Made by a program: the position numbers and the translations under genes. From the IMG/VR virus record IMGVR_UViG_2537561935_000012: a DNA stretch of 64,000 nucleotides. One strand, 5' to 3'. Numbering within the stretch: position 1 is the first letter of the stretch; every line of letters begins with the position of its first letter. Positions 12,569-62,952 of this stretch are shown piece by piece. Source of the DNA: a virus. Lineage: Duplodnaviria; Heunggongvirae; Uroviricota; Caudoviricetes. The notes beneath the pieces are model-generated. The model ran no database searches. It was not told the DNA's origin and saw nothing but the letters and a program-made list of their open reading frames with translations.

Positions 12569-12585
12569 AAATTAATTAGAGCAAT
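12569..12585 (-). promoter_or_regulatory. C1 repressor operator-like site upstream of ssb
   Basis: AAATTAATTAGAGCAAT: one mismatch to the reverse complement of the P1 C1 operator consensus ATTGCTCTAATAAATTT. Confidence 0.6.
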
Positions 12586-12718
12586 AATGTATATCTTTGA
12601 AACGTAGCTAACAAGTGATTTGCATTATCCTGTGCCTTCTAAAGGGATCGAGTCAGTCGGTATTGGCTGTGAATGAGTGTTTGTCCTGGAGCGTAAAAAA
12701 TTCGCTTATGAGGTCTTT

Positions 12719-13276
12719 ATGAAGGGAAAAACAGCCGCAGGAGGCGGTGCAATTTGCGCTATCGCGGTGATGATTACCATCGTGATGGGTAATGGCAATG
12801 TGCGAACCAACCAGGCAGGGCTTGAGCTGATTGGTAACGCTGAAGGTTGCCGACGTGATCCATACATGTGCCCGGCGGGGGTATGGACTGACGGGATCGG
12901 TAATACACACGGGGGAACGCCGGGTGTGCGAAAAACCGACCAGCAAATCGCCGCTGATTGGGAAAAGAATATCCTGATCGCTGAACGCTGTATTAATCAG
13001 CACTTCCGGGGCAAAGACATGCCCGATAATGCCTTCAGTGCAATGACAAGCGCGGCATTCAATATGGGATGTAATAGCTTACGGACCTACTACAGCAAAG
13101 CGCGAGGCATGCGAGTAGAAACGTCCATCCACAAGTGGGCGCAGAAAGGGGAATGGGTGAATATGTGTAACCATCTCCCTGATTTCGTGAACAGTAACGG
13201 CGTGCCCCTGCGAGGTTTAAAGATTCGCCGTGAAAAAGAACGCCAGCTTTGCCTGACGGGACTGGTCAATGAATAA
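12719..13276 (+). CDS. lyz: Endolysin, T4-lysozyme-like with N-terminal SAR (signal-arrest-release) hydrophobic segment
   Basis: 185 aa from ATG 12719 (RBS GAGG); N-terminal AAGGGAICAIAVMITIVMG hydrophobic segment followed by lysozyme-like core; track ORF starts 42 nt earlier. Confidence 0.85.
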   Translation: MKGKTAAGGGAICAIAVMITIVMGNGNVRTNQAGLELIGNAEGCRRDPYMCPAGVWTDGIGNTHGGTPGVRKTDQQIAADWEKNILIAERCINQHFRGKDMPDNAFSAMTSAAFNMGCNSLRTYYSKARGMRVETSIHKWAQKGEWVNMCNHLPDFVNSNGVPLRGLKIRREKERQLCLTGLVNE

Positions 13277-13523
13277 ACTCCGGCAGCTCCGCCGACTTTC
13301 GACAATGAAGTTATCGCTGGCGGCGATAGTTTTCGACTCGATTTTCATGGCGGTATATGTGCTCAATGAGACGTGGCCACTGGAACCGCTATTGTATGCT
13401 GGGCTTCGGCTGTGCCTGACATTTTTGAGCATGGCTGCAAGATTGATGCAGCAGAAAGAAACCGCTTCAGATTGTCCACGCCGCGCGGTGCGCAAATATA
13501 TGGCACGCAGGCGAAGGCGATAA
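13269..13523 (+). CDS. Small lysis-accessory membrane protein (LydC/LydD-like)
   Basis: 84 aa, one TM segment, Arg-rich C-terminus, overlaps lyz stop. Confidence 0.4.
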   Translation: MNKLRQLRRLSTMKLSLAAIVFDSIFMAVYVLNETWPLEPLLYAGLRLCLTFLSMAARLMQQKETASDCPRRAVRKYMARRRRR

Positions 13524-13534
13524 TAGTTAACGAG

Positions 13535-13562
13535 AACCCCGGCATCCGCCGGGGTTATTTTT
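13535..13562. terminator. Bidirectional rho-independent terminator
   Basis: Hairpin AACCCCGGC-ATCC-GCCGGGGTT followed by ATTTTT, between convergent lysis genes (+) and pro (-). Confidence 0.6.
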
Positions 13563-13567: not shown

Positions 13568-16298
<2,731 letters not shown>

Positions 16299-16364
16299 TT
16301 AATTAGAATAATTCGCATCGTGTTTGAACGGAATTTAACACTAGTCACTTGTTAAGGATTACCA

Positions 16365-19300
16365 ATGAACAAGCTATCTATGGGGGTGTTTCGCTGTTCA
16401 AGTGTCAGCGAAATATTGAAATACATTAGGGCAATAACATCTCACCGAGCGCCGATTAGATACGGCGTGGAAAAGGTGGAAGGCAAAAGCTATGACCGAC
16501 TACGCCGGGAGGCGAATCAGAAGGCGATAGATTTGCTTAATTCGCTGGTGGACGGCGCGACACTGACAGATGAACAGCGCCAGATCCTGGCTGGGTACAC
16601 CGGTGAAGGCGGCATTGGCGGGTCCGTCTCCGAATATTACACACCAAAGTCGATCGCTGAAGGTGTCTGGGAGATCATGAAGCTCTACGGCGCGGACGTA
16701 GGTAACACTCTGGAACCATCGGCGGGAACCGGCGTTTTTAATGAGACAAAACCGGTTGGTACGGTGATGACCGCGACTGAGATCAGCAGTGTTTCCGGTC
16801 GTATAAACCAGTTGTTACACCCGGAAGACAGCGTACAGATTTCCCCGTTCGAACAGCTGGCTATAAGCACGCCTAACGATTCATTCGACCATGTTGTGGG
16901 TAACGTTCCGTTCGGCGGTCGTGATAACACACGCAACATCGATAAGCCTTACGCAGAAGAAACGGACATGGGTTCTTACTTCATGCTCCGCATGCTGGAC
17001 AAGATAAAGCCTGGCGGATTCATGTGTGTGATTGTGCCGCCGTCCATTGTTTCAGGTTCAAACATGAAGCGGTTACGCCTGCGCCTATCACGGAAAGCTG
17101 AATTTCTTGGCGCTCACCGCTTGCCTACCGGTACTTTTGACGCAAACGGGACCAGTACAGTCGTTGATGTGGTGCTGATGCGCAAACATCCGGCAGAGAT
17201 GGCTGAGAAAATCCCCCTGGTGGATGAAGGCACTCTTGAATCGGCAAATGTGCTTTGGCCAACGTTTATTTCTGGCAAGTGGTTTGAAAAGGATGGCCGC
17301 CGGTTTGTTCATGGCACCCAGGAAAAGGGCTTCCAGGGGCGTATTGAGGTTCGTGCCGACGGTCAGATTGATAACCAGGCTCTTAAAGCGAAGCTGATTC
17401 ATCGTTTCGAAAGCCGTATCGACTGGTCTTTGCTCGATATGGCTGAACCGTCACCGACCGCAGACGTTGTTGGTGAAGGGGAAATGCGCCTGATTAATGG
17501 TGTATGGCAAAAATATGCTGGTGGTCGCTGGATTGAAGCTGATGCCGGGAAGGAACTTAAGATCGATGCTGCCAGTTATGGCGCGGATAGCTGGGAGGCT
17601 CTTCAGCGTAACCTGACTACAACAGAAGGCCGTCTCGGCATGACATTTACCCAGATGGCAAATGTCCGCGATAAGTACACCACATCAATCAGCGACGATA
17701 TGGTGCAGCTGGTGGACTGGATTAACAGCCAGCCTGAAAAATACCGTGAACGCTTGTATCGCGGGGCGATGATTGGCCGGATGTTAATTGAATATCAGGA
17801 CATGAAGGCCGCCGGGCATAGTGCTGAACAAATCGAACAGCAGCGCCTTTCTCTGGTATCCAGTTTGCAGGCAGAGATTGACCGTTTTGGTAACCCCGGT
17901 CGCGGTCCGATAGCGAAATTATCGGGGAGCGGTGCGCGCGCCTGGTTTGCTTTCCGTGGTGCAATTAAGCTGGATGGCACTATTTCTGACGAGCTGACAG
18001 GAAAACTGGTTACGCATGATTCCAGCGCCAGTTATGACTCCACCAGCTATCAGGACACCCTGCGTTATCTCTACAGTGATCTCACTCGCGATCCAATCCA
18101 GCTCGATGATTTCCGCCTTGCGTTTACCGGCGAACTGCCAGCCAGTGATGACGAGTTGCTTAATTTATTGGCCAGCACCCCTGGCATTGCGGTTTCACCG
18201 TATGGCGGGATTGTTCCGTTCGCCCGCGCCACCAGCGGCGACATTAACGAGATAGTGGCACCAAAACAGGAATTCCTTGCCACACTCCCCGACGGTCCAG
18301 TAAAGAACAACGTCCTTAATCAGCTGGCAGCGATCGAAGAGAAGCGCATCAAGACGCCAGCAGAGAATATCCGCTTTAAGCTCAATAGCCGTTGGTTCGA
18401 CCGTTCCGTCATTCTGGAATTTTTGCAGGAAAACGGCTATCCGGATCTTCGCTATGTGCAGTCAGTGCAGCTGGAAGGCGACGAAATGGTTTCTGACACC
18501 TATCACGGTGGTGATGGTCTGTTCGTCGGGCACCGATACGGTGTCGTCCAGCGCAAGGATAAAGAAACAGGCGAGATCCGCTACGAGTGGGATCGTAAAT
18601 CAGGTGAAAACGCGACCGGGTTCCCGGCACAGCTGGAAAAGTATCTCAATGGTGCGCGTATCGGTGGCAAAGATAGCGCGACGGCGAACGGCTACCGCGA
18701 GCAGATGGCACTGCTTGAGGACCAGTTCAATAAGTGGATCAAGACGCACGATCGCTACGATGAACTGGTTACCAAATACAACGATGTGTTCAATAGCAAT
18801 ATCCCGTATGAACACTCTGGCGATCCGCTTGGGTTGAAGGGATTAAGCGGTAAGCGCCAGCCATTTGATTACCAGAATAGCGAGGTGCGCCGACTGTCCG
18901 AAGATGGGCGCGGCATCCTGGGCTTCGGCACCGGGCTGGGTAAAACCACGACCGCGCTGGCGCTTGAGGCGTTCAACTATGAGAACGGTCGCTCCACCCG
19001 TACTGCGTATGTAGTGCCTAAATCAGTGCTGGAAAACTGGTATTACGAAGCAAAAGAATTCCTGAGTGAAGAGGCATTCAGTAACTACCTGTTCGTCGGT
19101 CTTGATGTGCTGATGGATGGCGATCAGATTCGCCAGGTGCCGGTGCTCGATGAGAACGGTAAACCTGTTCTTGGTACTGATGGCACTCCCGTTATGCGCG
19201 ATGCTCTTAAGCTGGCAGATGAAGCCACTATCACGGCGCGGATGAACGCGATCCCGCACTCAAATTACCGTGCAGTCGTGTTTACCAAAGAACAATACGC

Positions 19301-22300
19301 CCGCATTCCTCTACGTGATGACACCGTAGATGAGCATGCACAGGATATGCTTTATGACTTCGTTGCCGCCGGGCGCGTAGCCAGCGCAATGGATTCCGAT
19401 TCCCATCGCAAAGAGGCGGCGCGTCGCCGGGGATTGTCGGAGTATTCAGATACCGGTACCGAAAAAGCAGAGAAGTATCCGTACTTTGAGGATATGGGCT
19501 TCGATAGTGTGATCGCTGACGAAGGTCACAACTACCGCAATAGCTATAAAAATGGTCGCGAAGCGTCACAACTGGCCTATCTGCCCACCAGCGCGGTGGC
19601 GCAATCGGCGCGAGATATGGCAATTAAAAACGCGTACCTGATGAAAAAGAATGGCGGGCGCGGGCCGGTTCTCCTGACTGCAACGCCAGTCGTTAACACC
19701 CCGATCGATGCATACAACATGCTTTCTCATGTTCTGCCGAAGGAATACTGGCAGAACATGGGGATCTACGGTCCTGATGACTTCGTTAAATTCTTCGGCA
19801 AGACCAGGCTGGAAACGGTGCAGAAAATCAGCGGTGAAGTTGAAGAAAAAATGGCGCTGGTGGGCTTTGAAAACCTTGATGCGCTGCGCGGTATATTCCA
19901 TCGCTGGGTAACGCTTAAAACGGCGGAAGACGTTAAGGATACCGTGGAGATCCCGGAGCTGGACGAACACCAGCAGGATGCACCACTTACTGAAGAACAA
20001 CTGGCGGCGTATGAAGAATTGCGTCAGCAGGCGGAAGCGGCGGCAAAAGCCAACAATGGCGTTACGACCTCGGTCAATGAAGACGGCGTGATTGAGCACG
20101 AGAAAGCCCGTCCGATCTTCTCAATAATCAGGGATATGGACCGCGTATGTACTGACATGGACCTGTACTATCGCCGGATCACCTATCGTTTCCTGCCGGA
20201 GTACGCCGATGCGGTGCAGCAGCTGGCGGACAGTTTGCCTAAACAAGCCACCAGCGAAGACGACGACAGTGATGATTCAATCACGCAGCAATCGCAATAC
20301 TCCCTGATAGATAAGGGCGAGTTTATTCAGTTGCAGGTTCCGGAAGCGTTCGAGCAGGAAGTGAATAAGCGCCTGGCCAGGTTTGGCATTGACGAACAGA
20401 CCGTAACTCACCCCGTTACGCCGAAATACGCGAAGCTGATCGCCACGCTGAAGGAGTTTTTCCCGGAAGGGAAGCAAATCATCTTCACCGACGAAAAAAC
20501 GCAGCACCAGAAGCTCAAGCGCATTATCTGCAATGCTCTTAACCTTGAACCTTCAAAGGTAGGGATCCTGAATGCTCAGACGGTTGCCGAGGCAGGTAAA
20601 ACCGGTAAGAAACTGAAAGCGGTTAAACCGCCGAAAGAGTTACCGGATGAACCAACAGATGCACAGATAGCGAAATACAACGAGCAAATGGCTCTGTATG
20701 ACGCCTATATCGCGCAGCAAAATGAAATGTCGTTGGGCGGTCTGGAAAAGATTGCAGCCGACTTCCAGGAGGGCCGGACTCCGATCATCATCTGCAACAA
20801 AAAGGCAGAGGTGGGTATCAACCTGCATCGAGGAACGACTGACATCCATCATCTGACGTTGCCATGGACACCAGCCAGTATCGCACAGCGTAACGGTCGC
20901 GGTGCTCGAGTTGGCTCCAACCGTGCAAGCGTTCGCGTTCACTACTACTGCGGCAAGGGGTCTTTCGATGAATACCGATTGAAGACGCTGAAGCGTAAAG
21001 CAGGCTGGATCTCCGATATCCTCCGTTCAGATAAGTCGGAAATGGAGAACGCCGACGCCAATGACATGATCGAAATGCAGATGTATACCGCGAAGGATGA
21101 CGGCGAACGTCTGGCAATGATGCAGGTTCAAATGGATAAGGCGAAAGCTGCGAAACGCGCTCGCCAGAAAGAACAGGCTACTATCGACCTTCAGAATTAC
21201 ATCAAGGCGCAGCACGCAGCTGGCGAGGATGTGGAGGTACTTACCGCTGAATTAGAGCGAAGCAAAGCGGAACTTGAAAAGACCACCGCCGAGGTAGCTA
21301 AATTCAAACAGGCGGTAATGGCCAAAGCAGCTGATAACGCAGACTGGAAAGCCCGCTGGGGTAGCGTCCATCACACAGACCGTACGTTGTTAGCACAGTA
21401 TCGCGCGTCGTTGAAAAGCGCCATTCAGCGCAAGGCTAATATCTCTCAGGCCATCTCCCGCTATGAGAAATTATTGAACCGTACTCAGAAGGCCGCGACG
21501 GATATCAAACGCCTGCGCCCGCTGGTGGAGGATGCAATAAATAAAGGCATTCTGGATGTTGATCCTGATCTGGTTAACCATGCGAGTGAGTTCCTTGTTA
21601 TCGGCGATCGCTCATGGCGTGTAGGCCAATACTACGATTGTGCCGGTGATATCGTTCGCATTAAGTCGCTGGACTTCGACAGCCAGCGCGCAGACGTGGA
21701 GATCATCTTTACCTTCAAAGGCACCAAATCGGGTAACTGGGATGTGAAGACGCTGGATAAACAGGTGGATGTAACTCCCGATGAAGATGCTGTTATGCAG
21801 AAAATCAGTGGTGGCGTCTCCATCGCCGGGATTAACGACATCATTTCCTGTGACGATTTCTACCGTTTCCAGCAGCGCGGCATGATCAAAATCACTGACT
21901 CGTACGGCGTTCAGACTACAGAGTCAGGCTATAGCATTGATTTTGTTGGTACCTATACGGACCCACTGAAGCATGCGGTTTACCCGGATCGCCGTGACGG
22001 CGCGCTGAAGTCGTCAATTGCAAAATGGGTGCTTGGTATGATGTCGGAAGGGAATAACCGCCAGATCCGTTCGGCAGAAACATTCCTGGTTGAATTGTTT
22101 GGCTCCAATTATGGCGATGTAATCGCGTCATACGGAGATACGCTATCCCCTGAAGCAATTCAGGAGAAAATAGCGGATGCGATCGCCAGAATGCCGGAAA
22201 AAACAAGCCAGGGGGCTACTCGTAACGGGGATTCTGAACTTGAAGTCACCAATGCCATTTTCGGTACCAATGAGTTCCGGGCGTCAGATTATGAGATCAC

Positions 22301-23165: not shown

Positions 23166-23606
23166 ATGGCCACACTATCTGATACAATAAAACCGAATAA
23201 AACATATCTTGAGGCGGTACTCCGTACAGCGTTGTTAGGAAAGACAGAAGACGAATACGTTGATTTCTTCCTGTCAGGGCTACGCGGGCGATTACTGAAA
23301 AACCCCCGCCTGTACCGCAGCTATGGTCCATACTGGCCGGAAATTAAAAAATTATTACTGGAGCGCGGTTATGGTAATTTCGGTCGTCTCGTTGACCGTG
23401 ACGTTCGCAAAATTTACCGTTATGACCGCCCGGCGCTAACACTCATAGCCGCGACGCTCTACAGCCAGGAGCGTTTTGATAATGGTCAGATATACTCAGC
23501 CTGGCATTTACTGCCAGTGCCTGAAGAAGTTGACGACCAGGACTATGAGTTTGAGTCTTACGATTTGGAAGTTGAAGCCTTGGCACAGGCTGGAGAGAAA
23601 ACTTGA
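23166..23606 (+). CDS. ulx: Ulx-like protein
   Basis: 146 aa immediately downstream of darB; synteny. Confidence 0.5.
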   Translation: MATLSDTIKPNKTYLEAVLRTALLGKTEDEYVDFFLSGLRGRLLKNPRLYRSYGPYWPEIKKLLLERGYGNFGRLVDRDVRKIYRYDRPALTLIAATLYSQERFDNGQIYSAWHLLPVPEEVDDQDYEFESYDLEVEALAQAGEKT

Positions 23607-23851
23607 AAAAGCGATACTACACAGTAAAGCATGGGACGCTACGAGCATTACAAGAGTTTGCTGACAAGCATAACGTTGAGGTGCGCAGGGAAGGGGGAAG
23701 TAAAGCTCTGCGCATGTACCGTCCGGACGGGAAATGGCGTACGGTCGTCGATTTCAAAACTAACAGTGTTCCCCAGGGCGTCCGCGATCGGGCATTCGAA
23801 GAATGGGAGCAGATCATCATAGATAACGCATTGCTCCTGAATGCTGATTAA
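23603..23851 (+). CDS. lxc: Lxc/Bof-like C1 co-repressor
   Basis: 82 aa, overlaps ulx stop; size and position as P1 lxc (bof). Confidence 0.5.
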   Translation: MKKRYYTVKHGTLRALQEFADKHNVEVRREGGSKALRMYRPDGKWRTVVDFKTNSVPQGVRDRAFEEWEQIIIDNALLLNAD

Positions 23852-23892: not shown

Positions 23893-25197
23893 CTATATAA
23901 ACTTAGATACAATATCGTGAATCTGTTGTAGCGGGATATCTTCCATCTCATTCTTAATAAGAGAGCGGTTAGATGCTGTCAGTGAAGGCCATTTTGTTTT
24001 CCAGGCTAGATATGCTCGCCATGAGTAGCCTGTTTCGTAAGGTTTATTCATATAAGTCATTGAGTGTTCAACCGCATGTATGTATTTTTTCTCAAAATTG
24101 GTTCCTTTTACTTCAAATAAACTACCGAAATAAATAAGCCATTTTGCCAGGTGTTCATACTGCTCCCATGCGCCAGGCTTTTTAGTAAGCTCTATTTTTT
24201 TATCTATTATATTACAAAAAACATTTAATACATTTTCATTATTCCAGCTATATCCAGATGATGAAATGGAGGAAATGATATGATAAAAAGAATCCTCTAG
24301 CTTCAAGAACTCTATTTTATACTCTCTTCCGTTTTTTATTACCGATTTGATTGAGTGCCTCAATTTGTCTTTTATTTTTTTTGCTTCTGGAATTTTATCG
24401 TTAAGTTTTCTAAAGAAATCAGATACCTCTGTTTTATCTATAACCCTAACCCCATAGCAGGAAAAATAGTAATCTTTAATAGGTTGCAATAGTTCCCCTC
24501 GGGAAACAAGGAAAATATTGGAGGACATTACGTTGTCCCGTGAAAATACCTTATATTCATTTATAATAGCCTTTAGGTTCGCGTCACTTAGAGAATAGCC
24601 AAGGATAACAATAGTGTTTTCATGTAGAACTGTGCTTAGTTTATTAGAAAAGTAAGAATTACCATTTATAAATCTGAAATAATCCTCGCTAGTAACAACC
24701 ATGTCTGATGGGGAGTCTATAGAACCGTGAACATGGTAGACTTTAACCTCACAATTATATTTTGGAATTGGCAGGCCGGGGGTGATTGTACAAGTTCGAT
24801 TCTCTCCAGCCAGCTTTTCTGCTAACTTGTCATAATTTGTCGTAATTACTTTAAATGTGTTTTCTTTGAAAAAGTCTTGAATATATTCAATTGATGGATC
24901 AAGTTCGATTGAGGCTATGATTTTCTCAATCTCTTGGTAAATATTTTTCCCCGAAAGTATAAGTTTTAGTGCAATAACCTGAGCAGCTTCTTCAAGGCTA
25001 AGGTCTTTTGCTTTTCCATCAGGAAATAATTCCTCTTTGAGTGAGTCACCATCCTTCAATAAACCGCACAGTTGCTCCAATAAAGATTGCCAACTTGGGG
25101 CTTTATCATCAGAAACAGCCTTTGAAAATCCAGTGCCTGTAAGAAAGCACAGCCTATGTGTAGCCGCTGCATAGGCAATTTCTATATACTCGCTCAT
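23893..25197 (-). CDS. SIR2-like (NAD-dependent deacetylase/NADase fold) protein with uncharacterised C-terminal domain; candidate anti-phage defence effector
   Basis: 434 aa, ATG with GGAG RBS. N-terminal motifs CFLTGTGFS (GAGxS-like), VITTNYD and VYHVHGS in the order and spacing of SIR2-family defence proteins. DNA is markedly AT-rich (about one-third GC in a sampled stretch) compared with neighbours. Confidence 0.7.
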   Translation of the reverse strand: MSEYIEIAYAAATHRLCFLTGTGFSKAVSDDKAPSWQSLLEQLCGLLKDGDSLKEELFPDGKAKDLSLEEAAQVIALKLILSGKNIYQEIEKIIASIELDPSIEYIQDFFKENTFKVITTNYDKLAEKLAGENRTCTITPGLPIPKYNCEVKVYHVHGSIDSPSDMVVTSEDYFRFINGNSYFSNKLSTVLHENTIVILGYSLSDANLKAIINEYKVFSRDNVMSSNIFLVSRGELLQPIKDYYFSCYGVRVIDKTEVSDFFRKLNDKIPEAKKIKDKLRHSIKSVIKNGREYKIEFLKLEDSFYHIISSISSSGYSWNNENVLNVFCNIIDKKIELTKKPGAWEQYEHLAKWLIYFGSLFEVKGTNFEKKYIHAVEHSMTYMNKPYETGYSWRAYLAWKTKWPSLTASNRSLIKNEMEDIPLQQIHDIVSKFI

Positions 25198-25895: not shown

Positions 25896-26084
25896 AGCGC
25901 CCCCTACAAAAAAGAAAAGCCACCAGCGGCGGCTTAGCAATACAACTGAAGGTAGCGCCCGGTACTCAGACTGTGCCGTCCATGGAATATTTGAAAAGGG
26001 ATCCATCCGTACCGGGCATGTGATGATTCTGACTGAAGTCACTTGTCAGTTGTCAATTATTTCAGATTAAAAATAATATATTTA

Positions 26085-26645
26085 TTAGTGCATGATGTTT
26101 GCCATCTCATAGGCGTCAGCCAGCAACTCCATCTCTGACTTGTTCAGCAAGGTGAATTCTTTCTTGCCTCCAACCACCCCATCGGCATGAACAGGGACCA
26201 GCCAGGGGGATTTTTCTCTTACTTCAGCCGGTGCTGCATGCTGGTGGTGCCATCTACAAAGGGGCAATTGCTTTTTGTGACAACCCGGCGCGGTACGACC
26301 GGAGATATGGTGCAGAGATACCTCTTCAGATATTACTCCATGCATGTAGCAGGCAATGCAGGGGAGAGCGCCAAGAGCATTGGCGATGCTCCGTTCCTCC
26401 GCTGTCGATGTTCGCCCCTTCAAGCCACGAGATTTTATCTTTACCGCACTTTTCCGCGTTTTGCTGGCTGGTGGGCGCTCTTTCTGTTTAGCGATACGGC
26501 GGTCGATAGAATCCCGCATTTTCTGATATTGCGATTCTCGCCAGGCGGGGTCAGCCAACTTTTCCCGTTGCCGAGCGATCGCTCGTTCTCTGGCTGCCTT
26601 CTGCCACTCGCGGCGCTGTTCAAGTTTTTGTTCGATTGTTTTCAT
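26085..26645 (-). CDS. ref: Recombination enhancement function, HNH endonuclease
   Basis: 186 aa; basic N-terminal region and HNH-like Cys/His cluster (CIACYMHG ... HH ... CRWHH); matches P1 Ref in size and position. Confidence 0.85.
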   Translation of the reverse strand: MKTIEQKLEQRREWQKAARERAIARQREKLADPAWRESQYQKMRDSIDRRIAKQKERPPASKTRKSAVKIKSRGLKGRTSTAEERSIANALGALPCIACYMHGVISEEVSLHHISGRTAPGCHKKQLPLCRWHHQHAAPAEVREKSPWLVPVHADGVVGGKKEFTLLNKSEMELLADAYEMANIMH

Positions 26646-26731
26646 ATGGCAAAAAAAAAGGCGGCCTAATGGCCGCCAATGATGTCAAGGAGTTAAGTAA
26701 TGGCAACGTCTTCGTAGTTGACAAAAACTGC

Positions 26732-26761
26732 GGCTTAATTATAGCAATCAATTAGAGCAAT
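26732..26761 (-). promoter_or_regulatory. Tandem C1 operator-like sites upstream of ref
   Basis: Overlapping ATTATAGCAAT and ATTAGAGCAAT cores (reverse complement of operator consensus) about 100 bp upstream of ref start. Confidence 0.5.
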
Positions 26762-26892
26762 GGTAGATATTTTGTTAATCGCGAATCACATTTTTTCACT
26801 TCAGTACCTGTGTGCTATACTCCTTCTTGATTGATTGGATGCGGAATACAAACCCGCTCTTTTGTGCAGCCTGGCTCCTTGCCAGGCTTTTT

Positions 26893-27204
26893 TTATTTCA
26901 TCATGGAAGCTGTTAACGCTTTGGATCTTGCTGAACTGATTGAAAGGGCATTGTTTACCTTACCCAGGAGTTCGCCAAATTCCACCATCACTCTAGTAAG
27001 CCCGCGCCGCGCTTCCTCCTCCGTTGCATTCATCACAAAATGTTCAGCACTCCGCATGCTTTTAACGGGGAACGCAACAGATATCGAGTCGATATCAGGC
27101 ATCCTATCGCTCAACTTTACGGTGACAATGACAGATGGTGACTGAATTTGAGAGCTTACAGACAGCACCACATATTTTCCGTCTATTTTGAAATCCTTCC
27201 GCAT
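26893..27204 (-). CDS. Hypothetical protein between cre and ref (Cra-like position)
   Basis: 103-aa ORF; synteny only. Confidence 0.35.
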   Translation of the reverse strand: MRKDFKIDGKYVVLSVSSQIQSPSVIVTVKLSDRMPDIDSISVAFPVKSMRSAEHFVMNATEEEARRGLTRVMVEFGELLGKVNNALSISSARSKALTASMMK

Positions 27205-27220
27205 GCGTCACCATAAATAT

Positions 27221-27237
27221 CAAATAATTAGAGCAAT
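27221..27237 (-). promoter_or_regulatory. C1 operator-like site
   Basis: CAAATAATTAGAGCAAT, three mismatches to operator consensus (reverse complement). Confidence 0.4.
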
Positions 27238-27254
27238 CAAGCGCAAATGAACGG

Positions 27255-28286
27255 CTAATCGCCATCTTCCAGCAGGCGCACCATTGCCCCCGTTTCACTA
27301 TCCAGGTTACGGATATAGTTCATGACAATATTTACGTTGGTCCAGCCACCAGCTTGCATGATCTCCGGTATTGAAACTCCGGCGCGGGCCATATCTCGCG
27401 CGGCTCCGACACGGGCACTGTGTCCAGACCAGGCCAGGTATCTCTGACCAGAGTCATCCTTAGCGCCGTAAATCAATCGATGAGTTGCTTCAAAAATCCC
27501 TTCCAGGGCGCGAGTTGATAGCTGGCTGGTGGCAGATGGCGCGGCAACACCATTTTTTCTGACACGGCAAAACAAGTAGTTATTCGGATCATCAGCCACA
27601 CCAGAGACAGAAATCCATCGCTCGACCAGTTTAGTTACCCCCAGGCTAAGTGCCTTCTCTACACCTGCGGTGCTAACCAGCGTTTTCGTTCTGCCAATAT
27701 GGATTAACATTCTCCCACCGTCAGTACGTGAGATATCTTTAACCCTGATCCTGGCAATTTCGGCTATACGTAATAGGGTGTTATAAGCAATCCCCAGAAA
27801 TGCCAGATTACGTATATCCTGGCAGCGATCGCTATTTTCCATGAGTGAACGAACCTGGTCGAAATCAGTGCGTTCGAACGCCAGTGCCTGTTTTGCACGT
27901 TCACCGGCATCAACGTTTTCTTTTCGGATCCGTCGCATGACCAGTGAAACAGCATTACTGTCACTTGGTCGTGGCAGCCCGGACCGACGATGAAGCATGT
28001 TTAGCTGGCCCAAATGTTGCTGGATAGTTTTTACTGCCAGACCGCGCGCCTGAAGATATAGAAGATAATCGCGAACATCTTCAGGTTCTGCGGGAAACCA
28101 TTTCCGGTTATTCAACTTGCACCATGCCGCCCACGATCGGCAAACGGACAGAAGCATTTTCCAGGTATGCTCAGAAAACGCCTGGCGATCCCTGAACATG
28201 TCCATCAGGTTCTTGCGAACCTCATCACTCGTTGCATCGACCGGTAATGCAGGTAAATTTTGGTGTACGGTCAGTAAATTGGACAT
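27255..28286 (-). CDS. cre: Cre tyrosine site-specific recombinase
   Basis: 343 aa; translation MSNLLTVHQNLPALPVDATSDEVRKNLMDMFRDRQAFSEHTWKML... ends ...RLLEDGD, the familiar Cre sequence; loxP lies about 420 bp upstream. Confidence 0.98.
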   Translation of the reverse strand: MSNLLTVHQNLPALPVDATSDEVRKNLMDMFRDRQAFSEHTWKMLLSVCRSWAAWCKLNNRKWFPAEPEDVRDYLLYLQARGLAVKTIQQHLGQLNMLHRRSGLPRPSDSNAVSLVMRRIRKENVDAGERAKQALAFERTDFDQVRSLMENSDRCQDIRNLAFLGIAYNTLLRIAEIARIRVKDISRTDGGRMLIHIGRTKTLVSTAGVEKALSLGVTKLVERWISVSGVADDPNNYLFCRVRKNGVAAPSATSQLSTRALEGIFEATHRLIYGAKDDSGQRYLAWSGHSARVGAARDMARAGVSIPEIMQAGGWTNVNIVMNYIRNLDSETGAMVRLLEDGD

Positions 28287-28704
28287 TTAACACTCAGATA
28301 ATGGTTTTAAGTAAAGTGTACAGGATCGGCTCTGCCTTTACCTGTTTATGGTTCTCGTCATAGAAACGCCAGCGACCGCGCGTGCGTTCTATTTTCTCTT
28401 CACCGCGCGATAATGACAGTTGACAACTATCACGATCAAACCCTTTTGCCCGCCAGTAACCACGGTTTTTCTCAAGCTCAATATGAGTGGACACTTTAGC
28501 AGCTGAATATCCCATTTTTCACCTCTGATTGATTGGTGGTGCTAAGTGCGCTACGCGAAATCTGGAGCACTAACACTGCCAACATTTCACAGCTTTTACG
28601 TAGCGCAACCTTGATCAAATGATCAAGTGATCACTATTTGACCTGATAAGGTATTGAACTGTATGGATTTACAGGTAAATTGATCATGTTCAATAACCCT
28701 TAAG

Positions 28705-28738
28705 ATAACTTCGTATAATGTATGCTATACGAAGTTAT
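28705..28738. other. loxP recombination site
   Basis: Exact 34-bp ATAACTTCGTATAATGTATGCTATACGAAGTTAT (13-bp inverted repeats flanking 8-bp spacer). Confidence 0.97.
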
Positions 28739-28781
28739 TAGGTCTGAAGAGGAGTTTACGTCCAGCTGCGCATAAAAATCA

Positions 28782-28798
28782 AGAATTATTAGAGCAAT
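28782..28798 (-). promoter_or_regulatory. C1 operator-like site
   Basis: AGAATTATTAGAGCAAT, two mismatches (reverse complement of consensus). Confidence 0.5.
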
Positions 28799-28864
28799 AA
28801 ATTTTGAGAGAAAAATCCCACTCCACCAGCCAAAAACTGGATTGTTTTTCATAGTTGTTTGACA

Positions 28865-28881
28865 ATTGCTCTAATAAATTA
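28865..28881 (+). promoter_or_regulatory. C1 operator-like site upstream of coi/c1 region
   Basis: ATTGCTCTAATAAATTA, one mismatch to ATTGCTCTAATAAATTT. Confidence 0.6.
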
Positions 28882-29329: not shown

Positions 29330-29330
29330 A

Positions 29331-29347: not shown

Positions 29348-29439
29348 TATTTTCGTTGGATCCTTCTATAATGGTGGCCAACAACTCCCAGTGTAATCCG
29401 CTGTGAGTTGTTGGCCATGTCAATTCTGGAGGAGGATCA

Positions 29440-48504: not shown

Positions 48505-48667
48505 TCATTTCAGCGATTACAGAGTCCACTACAGCATCTGTTTCCTGTTCATTACGCGGCATGATCGATGCCAGCGATTCATAATTAGCCTTGGATGACA
48601 CGACTATTCTCCCGATGTTAATGTGCGCTATATCAAATGGCGCATATGTACTAATTAATTTATTATT

Positions 48668-49551: not shown

Positions 49552-49568
49552 ATTGCACTAATAATTTT
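49552..49568 (+). promoter_or_regulatory. C1 operator-like site upstream of plus-strand virion gene block
   Basis: ATTGCACTAATAATTTT, two mismatches to consensus. Confidence 0.45.
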
Positions 49569-49640
49569 CTTTTATTGAGTTAAATATTCAACAAATGACT
49601 AGCGGTAGAATCACCATCATCTATTTCTGGCAGGCTGACT

Positions 49641-54438: not shown

Positions 54439-55437
54439 TTATCCGTTACCGCGCGACGGTTTCTGCGTGATAAACGTCTCAAGCATCTTTTCCGCAATTG
54501 CCGACCAGGTGTGACACTGGACCTTTTCAGCATTTTTCACGCGATCAACGCGAGCAATAACCTCATCCCAATCAATCCGCGACTTGATAACCATATGGTT
54601 CACCAAAGCCAGGCGATCTGGCGGAAGGCAATCGGGAGGCGTTAATACCAACGCCCCGCACATTGCCGCCTCAAGAACAGTTAATCCAAGGCTTTCGGGA
54701 TGCGTAACGATAAAAACGTCACTCTTACGCAATTCAGCTGCAAATTCGGTTGCTGGCACCGGCGTCCGCCTGTATGGAGTTACCGAAATATTCCCCGGAT
54801 CAATGGTAACCAATCCGTCATCAGTCAACGTTCTGGCCTCATACGGAACGGTCAGACGCTGAAGGTTCATAAGGATACTTAAGGAGTGATCAAAACCACT
54901 AACATCAAATGCAGCGTGGTCTACAAAAATACGCAGAACATCGTCCGTTTTGGTTTCCAGATGGAACAGCTCCTGATTCGCTGCCCATCCAACATGTTTG
55001 TTAAAGCGATTATGACGTTCTAACCGACCGGGATTATCCAGGTACCGCCAGGTATCATCGCGGACAGTAAAAGTAATATCGACTGGTGCCGAATCCAGCA
55101 TAGAACCGTCATATACCTGGGCTACCCATCCAGAGAATCGGCGACACAGTTGCATGCCTATTTCCCTGGGTACCGTAGTAAAATACCTCAATCCTGGTGC
55201 CAAAATGGCCTTCGCAGAACATGCTGTCGCAGCAGTCAACACAGCTTCAACATAATCCTCGGGGCTTTCGACGCCAGGGGAATATGGACGATGGTATTGC
55301 AATGTAACCCCTGCCTCACTAAAGGCGCAGGCCAGGTTATAAGACCACATTTCCGTATATGTTTTCACATCACTGATGGCTGCAAATTTTCGCCCAATGA
55401 TCAGGATGTTCATCGGCTTTTCCTCATTCCATTGCAT
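54439..55437 (-). CDS. GT-B fold glycosyltransferase-like protein (downstream of ban)
   Basis: 332 aa; C-terminal VFIVTHPESLGLTVLEAAMCGALVL resembles GT1/GT4 E-x7-E motif. Confidence 0.5.
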   Translation of the reverse strand: MQWNEEKPMNILIIGRKFAAISDVKTYTEMWSYNLACAFSEAGVTLQYHRPYSPGVESPEDYVEAVLTAATACSAKAILAPGLRYFTTVPREIGMQLCRRFSGWVAQVYDGSMLDSAPVDITFTVRDDTWRYLDNPGRLERHNRFNKHVGWAANQELFHLETKTDDVLRIFVDHAAFDVSGFDHSLSILMNLQRLTVPYEARTLTDDGLVTIDPGNISVTPYRRTPVPATEFAAELRKSDVFIVTHPESLGLTVLEAAMCGALVLTPPDCLPPDRLALVNHMVIKSRIDWDEVIARVDRVKNAEKVQCHTWSAIAEKMLETFITQKPSRGNG

Positions 55438-56807
55438 TAATAATCCTCTTGCCAGTCAGCACCGGCATAGTTATCAAACCGTGAGTATTGGCCGTTAAAA
55501 GCCAATCTCACCGTGCCAATTGGGCCATTTCGTTGCTTTCCGATAATTACCTCGGCAATGCCCTTCATTTCGCTATCCGGGTGATAAACTTCGTCGCGAT
55601 ACAGAAACATAATCAGGTCTGCGTCCTGCTCAATTGCTCCTGATTCACGTAAATCTGAATTTACCGGTCGTTTGTCCGCACGCTGTTCAAGCGATCGATT
55701 AAGTTGTGACAATGCCACCACCGGTACTTGTAATTCCTTCGCCAACGCCTTCAGTGAGCGAGAAATCTCGGCAATTTCCAGCGTTCGGTTATCTTGCAGC
55801 TCGGGGACGCGCATAAGTTGCAGGTAGTCGATCATAATCATGCTCAAACCACCATTTTCTTTATAAACACGACGAGCGCGGGAACGTAGCTCTGTCGGCG
55901 TCAGGGCGCTTGAGTCATCAATAAAAATATTCTGCTTGTCCAACAGAATACCCATTGCGCCAGAAACCCGCGCCCAATCCTCGTCGTTAAGTTGCCCTGT
56001 CCGAATACGAGTCTGATCAACGCGTGCAAGAGAAGCCAGTGAGCGCATCATCAGCTGGTGGCTCGGCATCTCAAGGCTAAAAACCAATACGGGCTTATCG
56101 TTACGAACTGCGGCATTTTCGACGAGATTCATCGCAAACGTGGTCTTCCCCATAGATGGGCGGGCGGCGACAATGATGAGATCGGACGGCTGAAGCCCTG
56201 CCGTCTTCTTATTGAGATCGGTAAATCCCGTATCAAGCCCCGTTACACCATCATGTGGTCGCTGAAACAACTCTTCTATGCGAGATACCGTTGCATCGAG
56301 AATGCTGGCGATATCTTTTGGACCACTACCGCTCTTTTGTCGTTTTTCAGCTATTTCAAAAACGCGGCGCTCGGCCATATCCAGCAATTCATTGCTGCCC
56401 CTGCCATCCTGCGCATATCCAGCTTCGGCTATTTCATTTGCGACGGAAATCATTTCACGAACAACCGCGCGTTCACGAACAATATCCGCATAAGCACAAA
56501 TATTTGCCGCGCTGGGCGTGTTCTTTGACATCTCCGCAAGGTACGCAAAACCACCGGCGCGTTCTAATTTACCGTTCTGTTCAAGTGCTTCAGCAAGTGT
56601 TATCAAATCAATCGGTTTGCCATGACTTAATAACCTCTCCATCTCACTGAAAATTTCACGATGAGCACTGGTATAAAAATCATCAGCAACTATACGATCT
56701 GCAACTTCATCCCAGCGGCAGTTATCAAGCATTAAGCCACCAAGTACAGCTTGTTCTGCACTAAGGGAATTTGGCATGGATTCAAGAGGGGATGCAGACA
56801 TTAGCAC
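55437..56807 (-). CDS. ban: DnaB-like replicative helicase (Ban)
   Basis: 456 aa; Walker A ARPSMGKTTFAMN, DnaB N-terminal domain and RecA-like core. Confidence 0.9.
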   Translation of the reverse strand: MLMSASPLESMPNSLSAEQAVLGGLMLDNCRWDEVADRIVADDFYTSAHREIFSEMERLLSHGKPIDLITLAEALEQNGKLERAGGFAYLAEMSKNTPSAANICAYADIVRERAVVREMISVANEIAEAGYAQDGRGSNELLDMAERRVFEIAEKRQKSGSGPKDIASILDATVSRIEELFQRPHDGVTGLDTGFTDLNKKTAGLQPSDLIIVAARPSMGKTTFAMNLVENAAVRNDKPVLVFSLEMPSHQLMMRSLASLARVDQTRIRTGQLNDEDWARVSGAMGILLDKQNIFIDDSSALTPTELRSRARRVYKENGGLSMIMIDYLQLMRVPELQDNRTLEIAEISRSLKALAKELQVPVVALSQLNRSLEQRADKRPVNSDLRESGAIEQDADLIMFLYRDEVYHPDSEMKGIAEVIIGKQRNGPIGTVRLAFNGQYSRFDNYAGADWQEDY

Positions 56808-57863: not shown

Positions 57864-58594
57864 TTATTAACCTCATTACTGGTTGGGAAATAAGGTTGCG
57901 GTGCCGGGTGCTTCCCGGTGTCCTTTAGCTGGTTATCCACCGTGGACGGGGAAATAAGGAGAAATAATGGACAGATATAACCATTTCCCCGCGTGCGCTT
58001 AGCCGCATTCACCGCAACGGAAAGAGCATTCCTGGTGGACCTGTAGATTGGGATATGAACCCGTTACAGGAGAATGCTCTTACCTGTTACGTGCTCCGTT
58101 TCGTGGAGCTAACGGCGGGGGATCGGGCCGCACCAGACTGGACTTATTTCAGCGTTATGCTCATGCCAGAGAATCAAACTGTGATGGTCGGTGCTGAACT
58201 CCGACACAGGGTTGTAGCAAGCCCCGCAAAGCGCGCACTACTGTAGTTGCGGCACATCAGCCTGTGCATTCACCACAATGTTGAGAACACTGGTTGTCAC
58301 GCTGCAACGCAACATTTATTCGTAGATTGGGATATGACCCCGTTACGCCAGTGTTCTCAACGTTGTAGTGCCGGTTACGGTTCCGGCCAGGCCTCTTCCT
58401 CAACGGGGTGTTCTCCATACGGACTACCGTTTATTGGTCGTTCCTGCGGTTTATGTTGTGAAGCCAGATGCTTATCTTCTGGTTGCTTCAAAGAGCTGCA
58501 CTTCATCACAACGGTAAGGGTACTTCGTAGGGATTCGAACCCTCTGCCAAGCTCGGCGATCTCCGACGTCGCAAAATACCCTTACCTGTTGTGC

Positions 58595-58670
58595 TGGTGC
58601 CGATTAACGGACTCGAACCGCTGACATCCTGCTTACAAGGCAGGCGCTCTACCAACTGAGCTAAACCGGC
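58595..58670 (-). tRNA. tRNA-Thr (UGU anticodon)
   Basis: 76 nt GCCGGTTTAGCTCAGTTGGTAGAGC...CTTGTAA...GGTTCGAGTCC...CACCA with CCA end. Confidence 0.85.
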
Positions 58671-58672
58671 AT

Positions 58673-58748
58673 TGGCGATGGTGGATGGATTTGAACCATC
58701 GACCCGTTGATTAACAGTCAACCGCTCTAACCGCTGAGCTACACCATC
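58673..58748 (-). tRNA. tRNA-Asn (GUU anticodon)
   Basis: 76 nt GATGGTGTAGCTCAGCGGTTAGAGC...CTGTTAA...GGTTCAAATCC...CGCCA, 2 nt from tRNA-Thr. Confidence 0.85.
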
Positions 58749-59402
58749 ACTTGCCGGGTACGTCTCCGGCGAGGGCTTCCACCTCCGTATGCTTTTCGGC
58801 GCACCGCGCCCTGGCTGCAATTCGGTAACAGGGGATGCACAACCCTGGCTTCCAGCGTGATTAGCGCCTTCAGCATGACGGGATATACCCGTAAATTCGT
58901 GGAACTGTACCCAAAGTGCTGTTAAGCACCGCTGTTACGCTGAAAAGAAAACGCAACAGGAAAGGACGCTGACCAACAGATGGCCCCTTCTCGTTCATCT
59001 GGTTAATCACACCAGCGCCCTTACCTGTTGTGCCTCCCCGTTCCCTAATACACAGACGGGGACACTCTGCGGTCGATTTTTTGACGGGGGACGACTCATA
59101 CCCCGTGGCATCTGGCTTCTTAGGCCGCTACCATCATCAGATCATCGTTTGCATTTACTTTAATGGTCAGTTTCTAAACCGCCGCAAAGTCGCTAACCAT
59201 GACGAAAACCCTGAAAAAAACGCCCACCCGAAGATGGGCAAACTGGAAGCTCGTAACGCACTTCGGCGTTGCCACTTAGGCGCATGGTCAACCTGGCAAC
59301 TCGGTGTTTTGTCTGGGAGGACTAGGCCCAGCCATGCTTACCGCCGCGCCTGTCGCGGCTAACAGCTAAATCGCTCTATAAATCACGATTCATTGAGGCG
59401 AT

Positions 59403-59430
59403 ATTACACTAATAAATTTATTAGAGCAAT
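59403..59430. promoter_or_regulatory. Overlapping divergent pair of C1 operator-like sites
   Basis: AAATTTATTAGAGCAAT (59414-59430) is a perfect reverse-complement match to consensus; ATTACACTAATAAATTT (59403-59419) has two mismatches. Located between dmt stop and the tRNA/ban cluster. Confidence 0.65.
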
Positions 59431-61685
59431 ATACCCAAAACGTCATGAGCTACACCTCGAGTGTCCCCCTTACAAGACACAGAACGTCTGGCAAAAAGAG
59501 GTTCCACTCTGAAGCCACTGTCATGATAAAGCTCTCTGATGTTTGGCGCGCCACTGTTAGTAATGAGAACCTTTGCACCTCGACGATGAGCATCCGTCAA
59601 CAGAGACACCAGGCGTTTTTGCTCTTCAAACTTAAAGTCATGACCGGAATAGTTCGTGAATCCCTCTGTATTTGGAAGCGGTTCATACGGCGGATCGCAA
59701 AAGATGACATCTCCTTCTCCGGCAGCTTCAATCACCGCTGCAAAATCACCGCATACAAACTCAGACCGCCCTTCCGCACCGAGGAAGGCTTCCATCTCCT
59801 GTAATGGGAAATACGGAGTTTTATACTTCCCGTAACCGACATTGAACTCACCGGCCTGGTTGTAACGCGTCAATCCGTTAAAACAATGTCGGTTCAGGAA
59901 CAAAAACGCCGCTGCGCGATGTAAATCATCATAGACTTGTTTGTTAAACGCATTCCGTACTGCCAGGTATCCTTCCTGTGTGTTGTAGCCCTGGAAGAAA
60001 CGATGCGCCAGTGTGATAAGTGAATGCGCCTCGCGTTGCAGAGTCTTGTAAAAGTTAATCAGGTCAGCATTCACATCATTTAGCAGATTTTCCTGGTATC
60101 CGGCATTCGTGAAGACAGCTCCGCCACCGACAAAAGGTTCGATCAGGCGCTTCCCTTCTGGCAAATAGCGAAAGATTTGTTCCAGAACACCAAATTTTCC
60201 ACCAGCCCATTTGAATATGGACCGTTCGAATTCTGCCGCTGGTTTAACTTTTCGCTCTTTTGTTTCACTTCCTTCTTTCTGCCGACATACGGCCTTAGTA
60301 ATCCGATCGCCAATCCAGCGCATTACTGGTATTGCCATACTATTGCCGATCGCTTTGTAACGCGGTCCGTCAGCTGCAAGCATCGCGGCCTCTTCTTCGC
60401 TTAAATATGGATAGTGATTGCGAAGATATGCCAGTTCATCTGAATTAACTTTTTTACGCTTTTCCGTCGGGATCAACGTATGCCCATCAGGAAAACCTTG
60501 CAGCCTTTCACATTCGACAGGGGTAAGACGGCGGACAGCTACTTCTGCGTTTCTTACTTCATAGCAAACAGCTGTTGGATTTTTAGCCATTAGAGATGGT
60601 GAAGTATTCTTAGTTGCAGCATGTTGTGTACCGCTCATACGCTCAGGAAAAGCCAATGTAACAAGATGCTCATGGCTTTCTTGCTCACGTGCCCGCAATG
60701 TACCATGCCCTTCTGACCAAAAACCTGCTCCTGTGCTGCTAAAAACGGCAAGGTCAGTGGCATCTTTAAAATCTCTTGCCTTTACTGTCGATGCGGTTTC
60801 ATCGTCAATATATTCCCCAAATGCTGCCATCCTGAAAGCGTTTACGGCTTTCGTCGATTTCATACCGGGTGGCATGTCAGCGTGTAGGCATGGATTTAGG
60901 CTTTCGCCACTGATTGCAGCGCCATTTGCAATAATGGCGGAAGCGATTTCCTTCTTTTTTCGGCTCGGCGCAATATTCCGACGCACGCCTTCGAACTCAA
61001 AAAGTACCGTTGCGGGATCGAGGTCTGTTCGAGCACTTGCGACAACAAACACGCGTCGGCGTCGTTGTGCCACTCCGAAGTATTGGGCATCAAGGATTCT
61101 CCAGGCCACCTTTCGCTGCGGTCCATAAATACAACCACACTGCGGCCACTTTGGAGCATGGCAACCGGTTTTGCCATCCCACCGCCAGAACGCGTTACTT
61201 TTTCCTGATTCAGGTCGATCACCTGGTTCAAATGGCGCATCTTCTCCAGCCAATCCGGCAAGGAAACATCCGAAGGCGTTATCTGCCGATGACAGGACTC
61301 CTGGGACATTTTCCCAGACGATAACTGTCGGTTTGAGGAAGGACTCAGACCGTTTGTCGTCAATTGCATTTGCAAGCTCCACATACTTCAAAGTTAGCGC
61401 GCCGCGTTCATCATCAAGCCCACCACGTAAGCCCGCGATACTGAATGCCTGACAAGGCGTACCCCCGACGAGCACATCAGGGGATTCGATTTCCCCAGCC
61501 AGGACTTTTTTGGCAAGTTTTGTCATGTCGCCAAGGTTGGAGACATGGGGCCAGCGGTGCGCAAGAACGGCAGATGGAAAAGGCTCGATTTCAGCAAACC
61601 ACGCCGGACGCATACCCAACGGTTCCCAGGCAATACTCGCGGCTTCAATTCCACTGCAAACAGATCCATAGCACAGCTCTTTCAC
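59421..61685 (-). CDS. dmt: Bifunctional DNA methyltransferase: N-terminal C5-cytosine MTase fused to C-terminal Dam-like N6-adenine MTase
   Basis: 754 aa; C5 motifs [11 protein letters not shown] and VVWENVPGV; Dam-like [15 protein letters not shown]...[10 protein letters not shown] and VIFCDPPY. Confidence 0.85.
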
Positions 61686-62587
61686 TGCTTAGCCTCTCCA
61701 CCAAGGGCATTTACCAGAGCATCAACCAGGCACGAAATTTCACTGGTCAACAGGAAGAAATCTGCGTCCAGTCGCTGCGCAACATCTTCACTATCAATAT
61801 CAGAGTTCTGCTCAAGCAATTCATCCGCAAATTTGACGCTGGTAAGGTTGAAGTTATGGTCCAGTGTAAATTTAATGCGGTTCTGCCAGTCGAGTGCCAA
61901 CTTAGTAACGAGCTTGCCAGCTTCCAGGTGTGTGGAAATTTCATCGCTTCCCAAATCCTGCTTTTTCACTCGGGCAATACCGCCATCCTCAAGCACTGCC
62001 TTAAGTTCTGCCGCATCCCCCATTTGAAATCCCTGTGGAGCACTACCATCACGTACCCAGTCGGTCAGCGTTAATTCAATGGGATTTTCAACACTCAGGG
62101 GAACAACAGGAAGAGAACCCAGAGACTTACGCATAAGCGCGAGCATATCCTCTGCCTGCCGCGCGCTGGCATTGATATAGATACGTTTAGTTGAACCGTC
62201 GTAGATCGCCTGGATAACAGAAAACTTTGAAAAAGCCCGTGGCAGAAGAGAATGCAGAACTTCGTCTTTCAGGGAGTCCTTCTCTGTTTTCTTCAGTTTA
62301 CGCGCTTGTTCTTGCTCAAGTTTTTCAATTTTTTCTTGAATAGCTCGCTGGATAACCGGCGGGGGAAGAATTTTTGTTTCGCGCTTTGCTTCAACAAGGA
62401 TAAAACCATTTCCATGCATAGCGATAACTTCGGAATTATCACCAAATGGAGATACAAAACCGAACTTGGCCATATCCTGACTACCGCATGGCGTGAAAAG
62501 GATCATTTTCTTTTTATCTTCTAAGTCGGTCAGATCCGCCTCACGAGAAAGTTTATAAATAGTAATGTTTTTCCAGTGCTTAAACAT
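61682..62587 (-). CDS. hrdC: RdgC homologue (recombination-associated protein)
   Basis: From ATG 62587: [16 protein letters not shown] ... [15 protein letters not shown] ... [25 protein letters not shown], closely parallel to E. coli RdgC; track ORF starts 38 codons upstream. Confidence 0.8.
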
Positions 62588-62936
62588 GTTGTAACCCTTG
62601 AATATCAACCACAGAAAGCTCGTCTTTGTAGAAAAAGGCCAGGTTGTGGCACCCCCTCGTTTGAGCGTATGAGCTGGGACCAATTTCGTTCTTCCAGACA
62701 AATGGCTTCAAATCCGTACGGCGAAGCATAAAAACGCGATTTGTTCCGCTCTGATTCCCAATGAGGCAAAAGCCTTCTTTCACCTTGATAGCCTGCAAGT
62801 TGTCGAGTTCACCGCTGGTTACACGGCTATCGAACTCCTTGCGGCTTATTAGCTCCATCTGCATCTGACGACTCCAAACAAATGCCCATTGAAGGGCGAT
62901 GGCTGAATGGTACCGAAAATACGACATAAAAAACAA
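62580..62936 (-). CDS. Hypothetical protein upstream of hrdC (Uhr-like position)
   Basis: ORF with TTG track start; true start probably internal ATG. Confidence 0.3.
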
Positions 62937-62952
62937 TATTTATTAGAGCAAT
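62936..62952 (-). promoter_or_regulatory. C1 operator-like site
   Basis: ATATTTATTAGAGCAAT, one mismatch; immediately upstream of the hrdC/dmt-directed transcription unit. Confidence 0.55.

Follow-up and report, generated by a model that had tools for sequence, protein, structure and literature searches.

The DNA analysed here is a stretch of 64,000 nucleotides from a virus of the class Caudoviricetes (IMG/VR record IMGVR_UViG_2537561935_000012), referred to below at its full length as the window. Copies of a 17-base motif are dispersed along it, which raises the question of whether they are the operators of a phage repressor and, if so, which transcription units they serve. The window corresponds to a P1-like plasmid prophage (genus Punavirus) and runs along the reverse strand of the Escherichia phage P1 reference sequence (AF234172.1). 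It is 94–99% identical to P1 in the collinear shared blocks, which cover P1 64097–94800 and 1–32412, and positions 58000–62000 are 99.7% identical; P1 itself is less close to the window than are hundreds of plasmids of E. coli and Salmonella. We conclude that the dispersed sites are almost certainly operators of the P1 C1 immunity repressor on a P1-like plasmid prophage. For P1, this set of operators has been known for decades together with its consensus and its logic, and it is part of the reference GenBank record. What is mildly new comes from comparison only, and concerns a candidate site upstream of c8 that has been lost in P1 and P7, a candidate site in darB upstream of prt and the connection of operator O26 with the pmgL unit.

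Frequency and distribution of the motif

A search of both strands with the consensus ATTGCTCTAATAAATTT, allowing up to three mismatches, gave 15 matches between positions 12569 and 62952. A first-pass annotation of the window had reported at least 12 sites with 0–3 mismatches and had made a frequency above expectation the test of the motif; both are borne out by the present count. Dinucleotide-preserving shuffles (n = 100) contained a mean of 0.31 matches and 2 at most, and none of the 100 reached 15. The exact 11-nt 5′ core ATTGCTCTAAT, which is nearly invariant among the operators and is followed by a variable, A/T-rich 3′ tail, is present in 11 copies compared with an expected 0.04. A weight matrix was derived from 19 annotated P1 sites and evaluated against second-order Markov simulations, a scan with a background model having been proposed in the first-pass annotation; it returned 18 matches of at least 14 bits in the window, compared with 0.33 in the simulated sequences. 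Site positions and counts are direct observations, and they show the 17-base motif to be real and much more frequent than chance would give. An A/T-rich word recurring by chance in A/T-rich intergenic DNA could be envisaged, as both the 3′ half of the motif and the intergenic DNA of the element are A/T-rich. The shuffled sequences already refute this explanation, and the excess of cores and matrix matches over their expectations speaks against it as well, as do the location of the conserved part in the G/C-containing core and the retention of the site positions in a Cronobacter phage with a C1 that is only 76% identical (JK004; see below), and we regard its probability as next to nil.

Open reading frames (ORFs) of at least 100 amino acids span ∼87% of the window, and 12 of the 15 matches have no more than 1 nt inside them. 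The sites had been described as always intergenic, which is only an approximation: the match at 16419–16435 lies inside darB, and Obana extends over the end of dmt. Two annotated operators that were missed by the three-mismatch search are also not strictly intergenic, namely Omat (ref 3′ end) and Oc1c (inside coi).

Correspondence with the C1 operators of P1

Twenty monovalent operators of the ‘phage repressor C1’ are recorded in AF234172.1, 17 of them within the part of P1 that is covered by the window; Oc4, OrepL and Orlf (P1 48–52 kb) are outside it. All 17 covered ‘protein_bind’ features have a counterpart at the matching window position (Table 1), so that the comparison with mapped P1 sites suggested at first reading is matched throughout by position. 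Only OpmgT and Oppp deviate from the P1 sequence; the other 15 of the 17 are the same. Viewed from the motif, 13 of the 15 matches coincide exactly with annotated P1 operators, while four annotated operators (Omat, Oc1b, Oc1c and Oppp) carry 4–7 mismatches and are beyond the reach of the search. The window shares with P1 the asymmetric 17-bp consensus, the operator positions by gene and the proteins C1, Coi and Lxc, all three of which it encodes; the immI region (c4–icd–ant, P1 48–50 kb) maps outside the window. Control by the P1 C1 repressor, as proposed in the first-pass annotation, is well supported by this coincidence of sites and by the presence of the three genes.

Nothing contradicts this conclusion, with the caveat that Oppp is weaker in the window (TATGTACTAATTAATTT, 13.7 bits) than in P1 (CATGCACTAATTAATTT, 20.9 bits); two bases differ, one of them at core position 5 (C to T). 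Oppp keeps its place and its orientation on the opposite strand in JK004 and in a Salmonella plasmid (NZ_CP146848.1), where the match is weak too (ATTATTCTAAT...).

The arrangement of the sites is more varied than first described. The P1 record classes Obanab and Oc1ab as bivalent, and in the window each of them consists of two inverted sites with overlapping 3′ tails. The perfect match at 59414–59430 on the minus strand and its overlapping partner at 59403–59419 on the plus strand are as originally described; the two share 6 nt and cover the P1ban and P2ban promoters together with the last 10 nt of dmt, with tRNAs found 3′ of them. Among the pairs that had been termed divergent, 28782/28865 truly is, whereas 59403/59414 and 45879/45928 are convergent. 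A consistent orientation of the motif relative to the downstream gene does not hold, since Oppp and O26 precede pmg genes that are encoded on the other strand.

Table 1 C1 operators, candidate sites and repressor-related genes in the window, with their counterparts in P1 (AF234172.1)
Feature	Position	Strand	Sequence or match	Context	P1 counterpart
Ossb (former Op21)	12569–12585	−	ATTGCTCTAATTAATTT; identical to P1	20 nt 5′ of ssb	21015–21031, annotated
Candidate site in darB	16419–16435	−	ATTGCCCTAATGTATTT; 16.6 bits, 14/17	darB codons ∼19–24; ∼70 nt 5′ of LPpro, 130 nt 5′ of prt	17166–17182
lxc (bof), co-repressor	23603–23851	+	82/82 (100%) identical to P1 Lxc		
Omat (former Op2b)	26078–26094	−	CATGCACTAATAAATAT; 4 mismatches, 21.1 bits	Overlaps ref end, 5′ of mat	2628–2645, annotated
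Oref (former Op2a)	26745–26761	−	ATTGCTCTAATTGATTG	100 nt 5′ of ref	1962–1978, annotated, inside promoter P2ref
Candidate operator, c8	27221–27237	−	ATTGCTCTAATTATTTG; 23.2 bits	Between cre and c8, 16 nt before c8 start codon	1485–1501
Oc1e (former Op99e)	28782–28798	−		Adjoins loxP, faces cra–cre	94724–94740, annotated, abuts −35 of P4cre
Oc1d (former Op99d)	28865–28881	+		In promoter P1coi (imcA–imcB–coi–c1)	94641–94657, annotated
coi, C1 inactivator	29120–29329	+	69/69 (100%) identical to P1 Coi		
Oc1c (former Op99c)	29157–29173	+	ATTGCTCTAACGCTTTA; 5 mismatches, 15.4 bits	Inside coi	94349–94365, annotated
Oc1ab (former Op99ab), bivalent	Oc1a 29329–29345; Oc1b 29340–29356	Oc1a +; Oc1b −	Oc1b, 7 mismatches	Overlaps Pc1, 5′ of c1	94166–94193, annotated
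c1, repressor, 283 aa	29440–30291	+	281/283 (99.3%) identical to P1 C1.100		
lpa, late-promoter activator	33080–33532	−	149/150 identical to P1 Lpa; PF25716 at 2.3e-57		
Olpa (former Op94)	33603–33619	−		71 nt 5′ of lpa	89904–89920, annotated, overlaps −35 of Plpa
OpmgT (former Op88)	43787–43803	−	ATTGCTCTAATAAATAT; one tail base differs (P1 ...AAATCT)		84293–84309, annotated
OpmgRb/OpmgRa (former Op86ab)	OpmgRb 45879–45895; OpmgRa 45928–45944	OpmgRb +; OpmgRa −		Convergent, between pmgQ and pmgR–pmgS	82152–82168 and 82201–82217, annotated
Oppp (former Op83)	48645–48661	+		Between pmgM and pmgN	79435–79451, annotated
O26 (former Op82)	49552–49568	+		Between pmgL (−) and gene 26 (+)	78528–78544, annotated
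Obanab (former Op72ab), bivalent	Obanb 59403–59419; Obana 59414–59430	Obanb +; Obana −	Obana, perfect consensus		68667–68694, annotated
Odmt (former Op68)	62936–62952	−		5′ of uhr–hrdC–dmt	65145–65161, annotated, abuts −35 of Pdmt

Proposed mode of repression

The published 17-bp C1 consensus (PMC8546580, citing Lobocka et al. 2004) is the same as that of the first-pass annotation, and the same source describes the operators as dispersed, Coi as inactivating C1 in a 1:1 ratio and Lxc as enhancing operator binding. Inactivation of a thermolabile C1 is followed by a rise of ref, ban, ssb, dmt and kilA, as measured by reverse-transcription quantitative PCR, in a study that also mentions the occlusion of a ref promoter by a C1 site (PMC4713147). 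According to the P1 annotation, which can be carried to the window where the sequence is identical, the operators are located over or beside sigma-70 promoters. The operator TTGCTC constitutes the −35 hexamer of P1ban, PpmgR and P2pmgT, Oref separates the two hexamers of P2ref, and the −35 hexamers of Plpa and Pc1 are covered by Olpa and Oc1ab, respectively. C1 reportedly binds as a monomer, bivalent operators are said to bend DNA, and looping between Op99 sites is said to add to autoregulation, all from work of the Schuster and Sternberg laboratories in 1987–1995. A generic sigma-70 consensus scan of 26000–29500 showed no enrichment, with 6 promoters against an expectation of 5.0, and the weak promoters known from the annotation were not among them.

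For this particular element, P1-like behaviour is expected by analogy; literature or annotation is the source for the binding of C1, for the overlap with promoters and for what Lxc and Coi do. C1 would bind each asymmetric 17-bp site and would thereby hold the early or lytic units ssb, ref, mat, cra–cre, coi–c1, lpa, pmgT, pmgR–S, pmgL to ppp, ban and dmt under its operators. The operator would often supply the −35 (TTGCTC) or the −10 (TCTAAT) hexamer and, because it overlaps or abuts a sigma-70 promoter, bound C1 would occlude RNA polymerase. Lxc would strengthen the binding of C1, and Coi (and Ant, which is encoded outside the window) would inactivate it.

The same hexamers might be taken to indicate that the motif is a promoter element shared by early genes, that is, a −35/−10 module for RNA polymerase or a phage activator, rather than a repressor site. 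The core indeed holds both the −35-like TTGCTC and TGcTCTAAT, which resembles an extended −10, and promoter hexamers fall within several operators in the P1 annotation. The two roles are nevertheless compatible, and the literature assigns repressor binding to the motif (PMC8546580; PMC4713147). For P1, footprints of C1 on its operators and derepression after loss of C1 activity have both been reported. Moreover, the sites do not occupy a fixed place relative to the promoter but are found over the −35, between the hexamers, 3′ of the −10 or up to 20 nt upstream, which fits an occluding repressor, and the motif of the late activator is different. We consider it very improbable that the sites are promoter elements instead of C1 operators.

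Conservation in related elements

An alignment scan for C1 in species-representative genomes gave four loci, all 99% identical, and a corresponding scan of IMG/VR gave 80 loci with C1 99–100% identical, which served for variant counts and not for divergence. The sequence of Oc1c is invariant in 80 of 80 related loci. Phage P7 (AF503408.1) has a homologous immC region and operators, with fewer operators annotated in its record.

More distant relatives are Cronobacter phage JK004 (MZ188976.1), the C1 of which is 76% identical to that of the window, and the Salmonella plasmid NZ_CP146848.1, which represents a third C1 lineage. In a whole-genome scan of JK004 the motif was found before the orthologues of uhr–hrdC–dmt, ban, ref, the divergent cra/coi pair, c1 and lpa, as well as before the cargo at the pmgT position, pmgR–S (as a pair), the pmgL region and ssb; the regulon is kept at this level of C1 divergence. 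Most of the JK004-type sites are also present in the 41 kb of the Salmonella plasmid that were examined. The gene order of both elements is rearranged relative to the window, and ban follows its operators directly, with no tRNA/tci cluster in between.

Phage D6 (MF356679.1), a plasmid prophage of the P1 type at a greater distance, has a P1-like gene content and an annotated C1-like repressor gene of 1038 nt, compared with 852 nt in the window. The scan of D6 gave no site reaching the scores of proven operators (the best had 13.2 bits, and none was at an orthologous position) and no ATTGCTCTAAT-type sites, which made D6 uninformative as a third divergent genome. The motif is thus specific to the P1/P7/JK004 type of C1, and the operator of D6 must differ.

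Late units and the assignment of O26

The first-pass annotation had correctly noted the absence of an operator immediately before the dar operon: the weight matrix gave no match of 8 bits or more between 419 and 11160. The absence is accounted for by the Lpa-dependent late promoter LPdar (3366–3384). The other late-promoter boxes in the window are LPlyz, LPpro (16332–16350), LPpac, LPhot and LP26 (49593–49611). Control of the late units (dar, lyz, pro, pac and 26) would be indirect, with C1 repressing lpa through Olpa and Lpa activating the late promoters.

O26 had been taken as a hint that the plus-strand virion block is under direct immunity control, a suggestion that the comparison does not favour. 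The operator overlaps the predicted sigma-70 promoters P1pmgL and P2pmgL, which read leftwards, away from gene 26. Gene 26 (85% identical) is not linked to pmgL in either JK004 or the Salmonella plasmid and lacks a site in front of it there, while pmgL retains strong sites on its 5′ side (the JK004 coordinates for this comparison are 37765–38232 and 70227). Since the operator stays with pmgL where synteny is broken, O26 is no proof of direct C1 control of the virion block. Judged from this comparison, O26 most likely serves the pmgL-to-pmgQ unit and not the gene 26 virion block, and the 26–25–7–24–6–5 block most likely depends on LP26.

Candidate operators upstream of c8 and prt

Two matches, at 27221 and 16419, are not annotated as operators in either P1 or P7. 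At the first of these, between cre and c8, P1 and P7 both read ATTGCTATAATTATTTG. The difference places A instead of C at core position 7, where C is invariant in all 19 matrix sites; in our interpretation of the sequence, this change would create TGcTATAAT, a perfect extended −10. Those of the 80 IMG/VR P1-like loci that carry the c8 site mostly have an intact core and three have the P1 form; the core is also intact in SJ46, phiW39 and MH422554. In JK004 and the Salmonella plasmid the cre–c8 spacer has diverged beyond recognition except for ATTGCTCTAATAATTT[A/T] at the position of the c8 site (25–27 bits). The c8 site is a clear phylogenetic footprint across three lineages, and it suggests that C1 may control c8, a putative lysogeny-establishment gene, in this element and in most others of the P1 type. 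The c8 proteins of the window and P7 are 84.5% identical.

The second candidate is located within darB, upstream of prt, and is identical in P1. Its orthologues read ATTGCTCTAATAAATCT in JK004 (16/17) and ATTGCTCTAATAAATCG in the Salmonella plasmid (15/17). The core of the site encodes Ile-Arg-Ala-Ile of DarB and, taken alone, the site could be a chance match. A block just 5′ of prt at 16293–16309 on the minus strand, AATTATTCTAAT[T/G]AAGGTG, does not vary among the four lineages that were compared; its complement contains TAGAAT, the annotated −10 of PdarB, and the block resembles the weak JK004-type operator core ATTATTCTAAT.

Both matches could be something other than functional operators, the first being the −10 region of c8 and the second a coincidence of DarB coding. 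The perfect extended −10 in P1 and P7 and the missing annotation in both records agree with this explanation. The c8 site, however, is the sole conserved block of a diverged spacer in three lineages, and its 23–27 bits are like those of proven operators. A single match with three mismatches is within reach of chance, given the largest shuffle count, and at the darB site the Ile-Arg-Ala-Ile sequence is conserved in all four sequences compared, so that protein constraint could explain this site. Such a constraint may be a partial alternative explanation in P1 and the window; the close agreement of the JK004 and Salmonella plasmid sites at the orthologous position, which includes the non-core tail, argues for an operator. 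Overall, we hold it possible but rather doubtful that neither match is functional. That the regulon controlled by C1 in natural P1-like elements extends beyond the P1 and P7 annotations by at least one member, and perhaps by two (the candidate c8 and darB sites), is, in our estimate, an evenly balanced proposition.

Several sub-threshold matrix matches were rejected as operators: 24959–24975 (14.5 bits, in the SIR2-like ORF described below), 55431–55447 (12.0 bits, on the opposite strand where ban meets dbn), 26732–26748, 43912–43928, 419–435, 11160–11176 and 25071–25087. They were dropped because of core mismatches, coding or non-conserved positions and scores within the range of the simulated background.

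Variable regions of the element

OpmgT heads a ∼6.8 kb run of ∼12 minus-strand ORFs (36976–43608) that is largely unlike pmgT–U–V of P1, with ∼5.4 kb of other genes 3′ of the operator in the window compared with P1. The ORFs include Ead/Ea22-like and DUF551 proteins, and a Pfam search of nine ORFs downstream of OpmgT identified only these two families. The block had been described as HAD/ASCH; pap does correspond to HAD_PNKP, but an ASCH domain was found in none of the nine ORFs tested. Long gene runs of other content are also present behind the orthologous operator at the pmgT position in JK004 and the Salmonella plasmid. The run led by OpmgT resembles a slot for variable cargo that would be controlled by C1.

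The window differs from P1 in further respects. IS1 and IS5 of P1 are not present, and the place of the EcoP1 res and mod genes is taken by ∼1.4 kb with a 434-amino-acid SIR2-like ORF (23893–25197, minus strand; SIR2_2 domain, 2.2e-23). A ‘SIR2 family protein’ is annotated at this place in many related plasmids, and the ORF is probably another defence gene in the P1 res/mod hotspot. In the part of the window around 10359–10391 and 11175–11860, where the IS1 of P1 is lacking, ∼685 bp between the isaA-homologous and ssb-bearing blocks have no megablast match to P1. Within positions 1–2184, the region of the invertible C-segment and tail fibres, the match to P1 consists of one 123 bp piece with 85% identity, which suggests that the variable part of the tail fibre differs from that of P1.

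Biological implications

For annotation, the motif reliably marks the regulon of early lytic and immunity functions in P1-type phage-plasmids, a group that commonly carries resistance genes in Enterobacteriaceae. It may also point to accessory cargo that is silenced in the prophage, in this element the 6.8 kb block behind OpmgT. If the candidate c8 operator is functional, c8 would be repressed by C1 in lysogens of most P1-like plasmids, and less or not at all in P1, and the site that controls this gene may be atypical in the reference phages P1 and P7.

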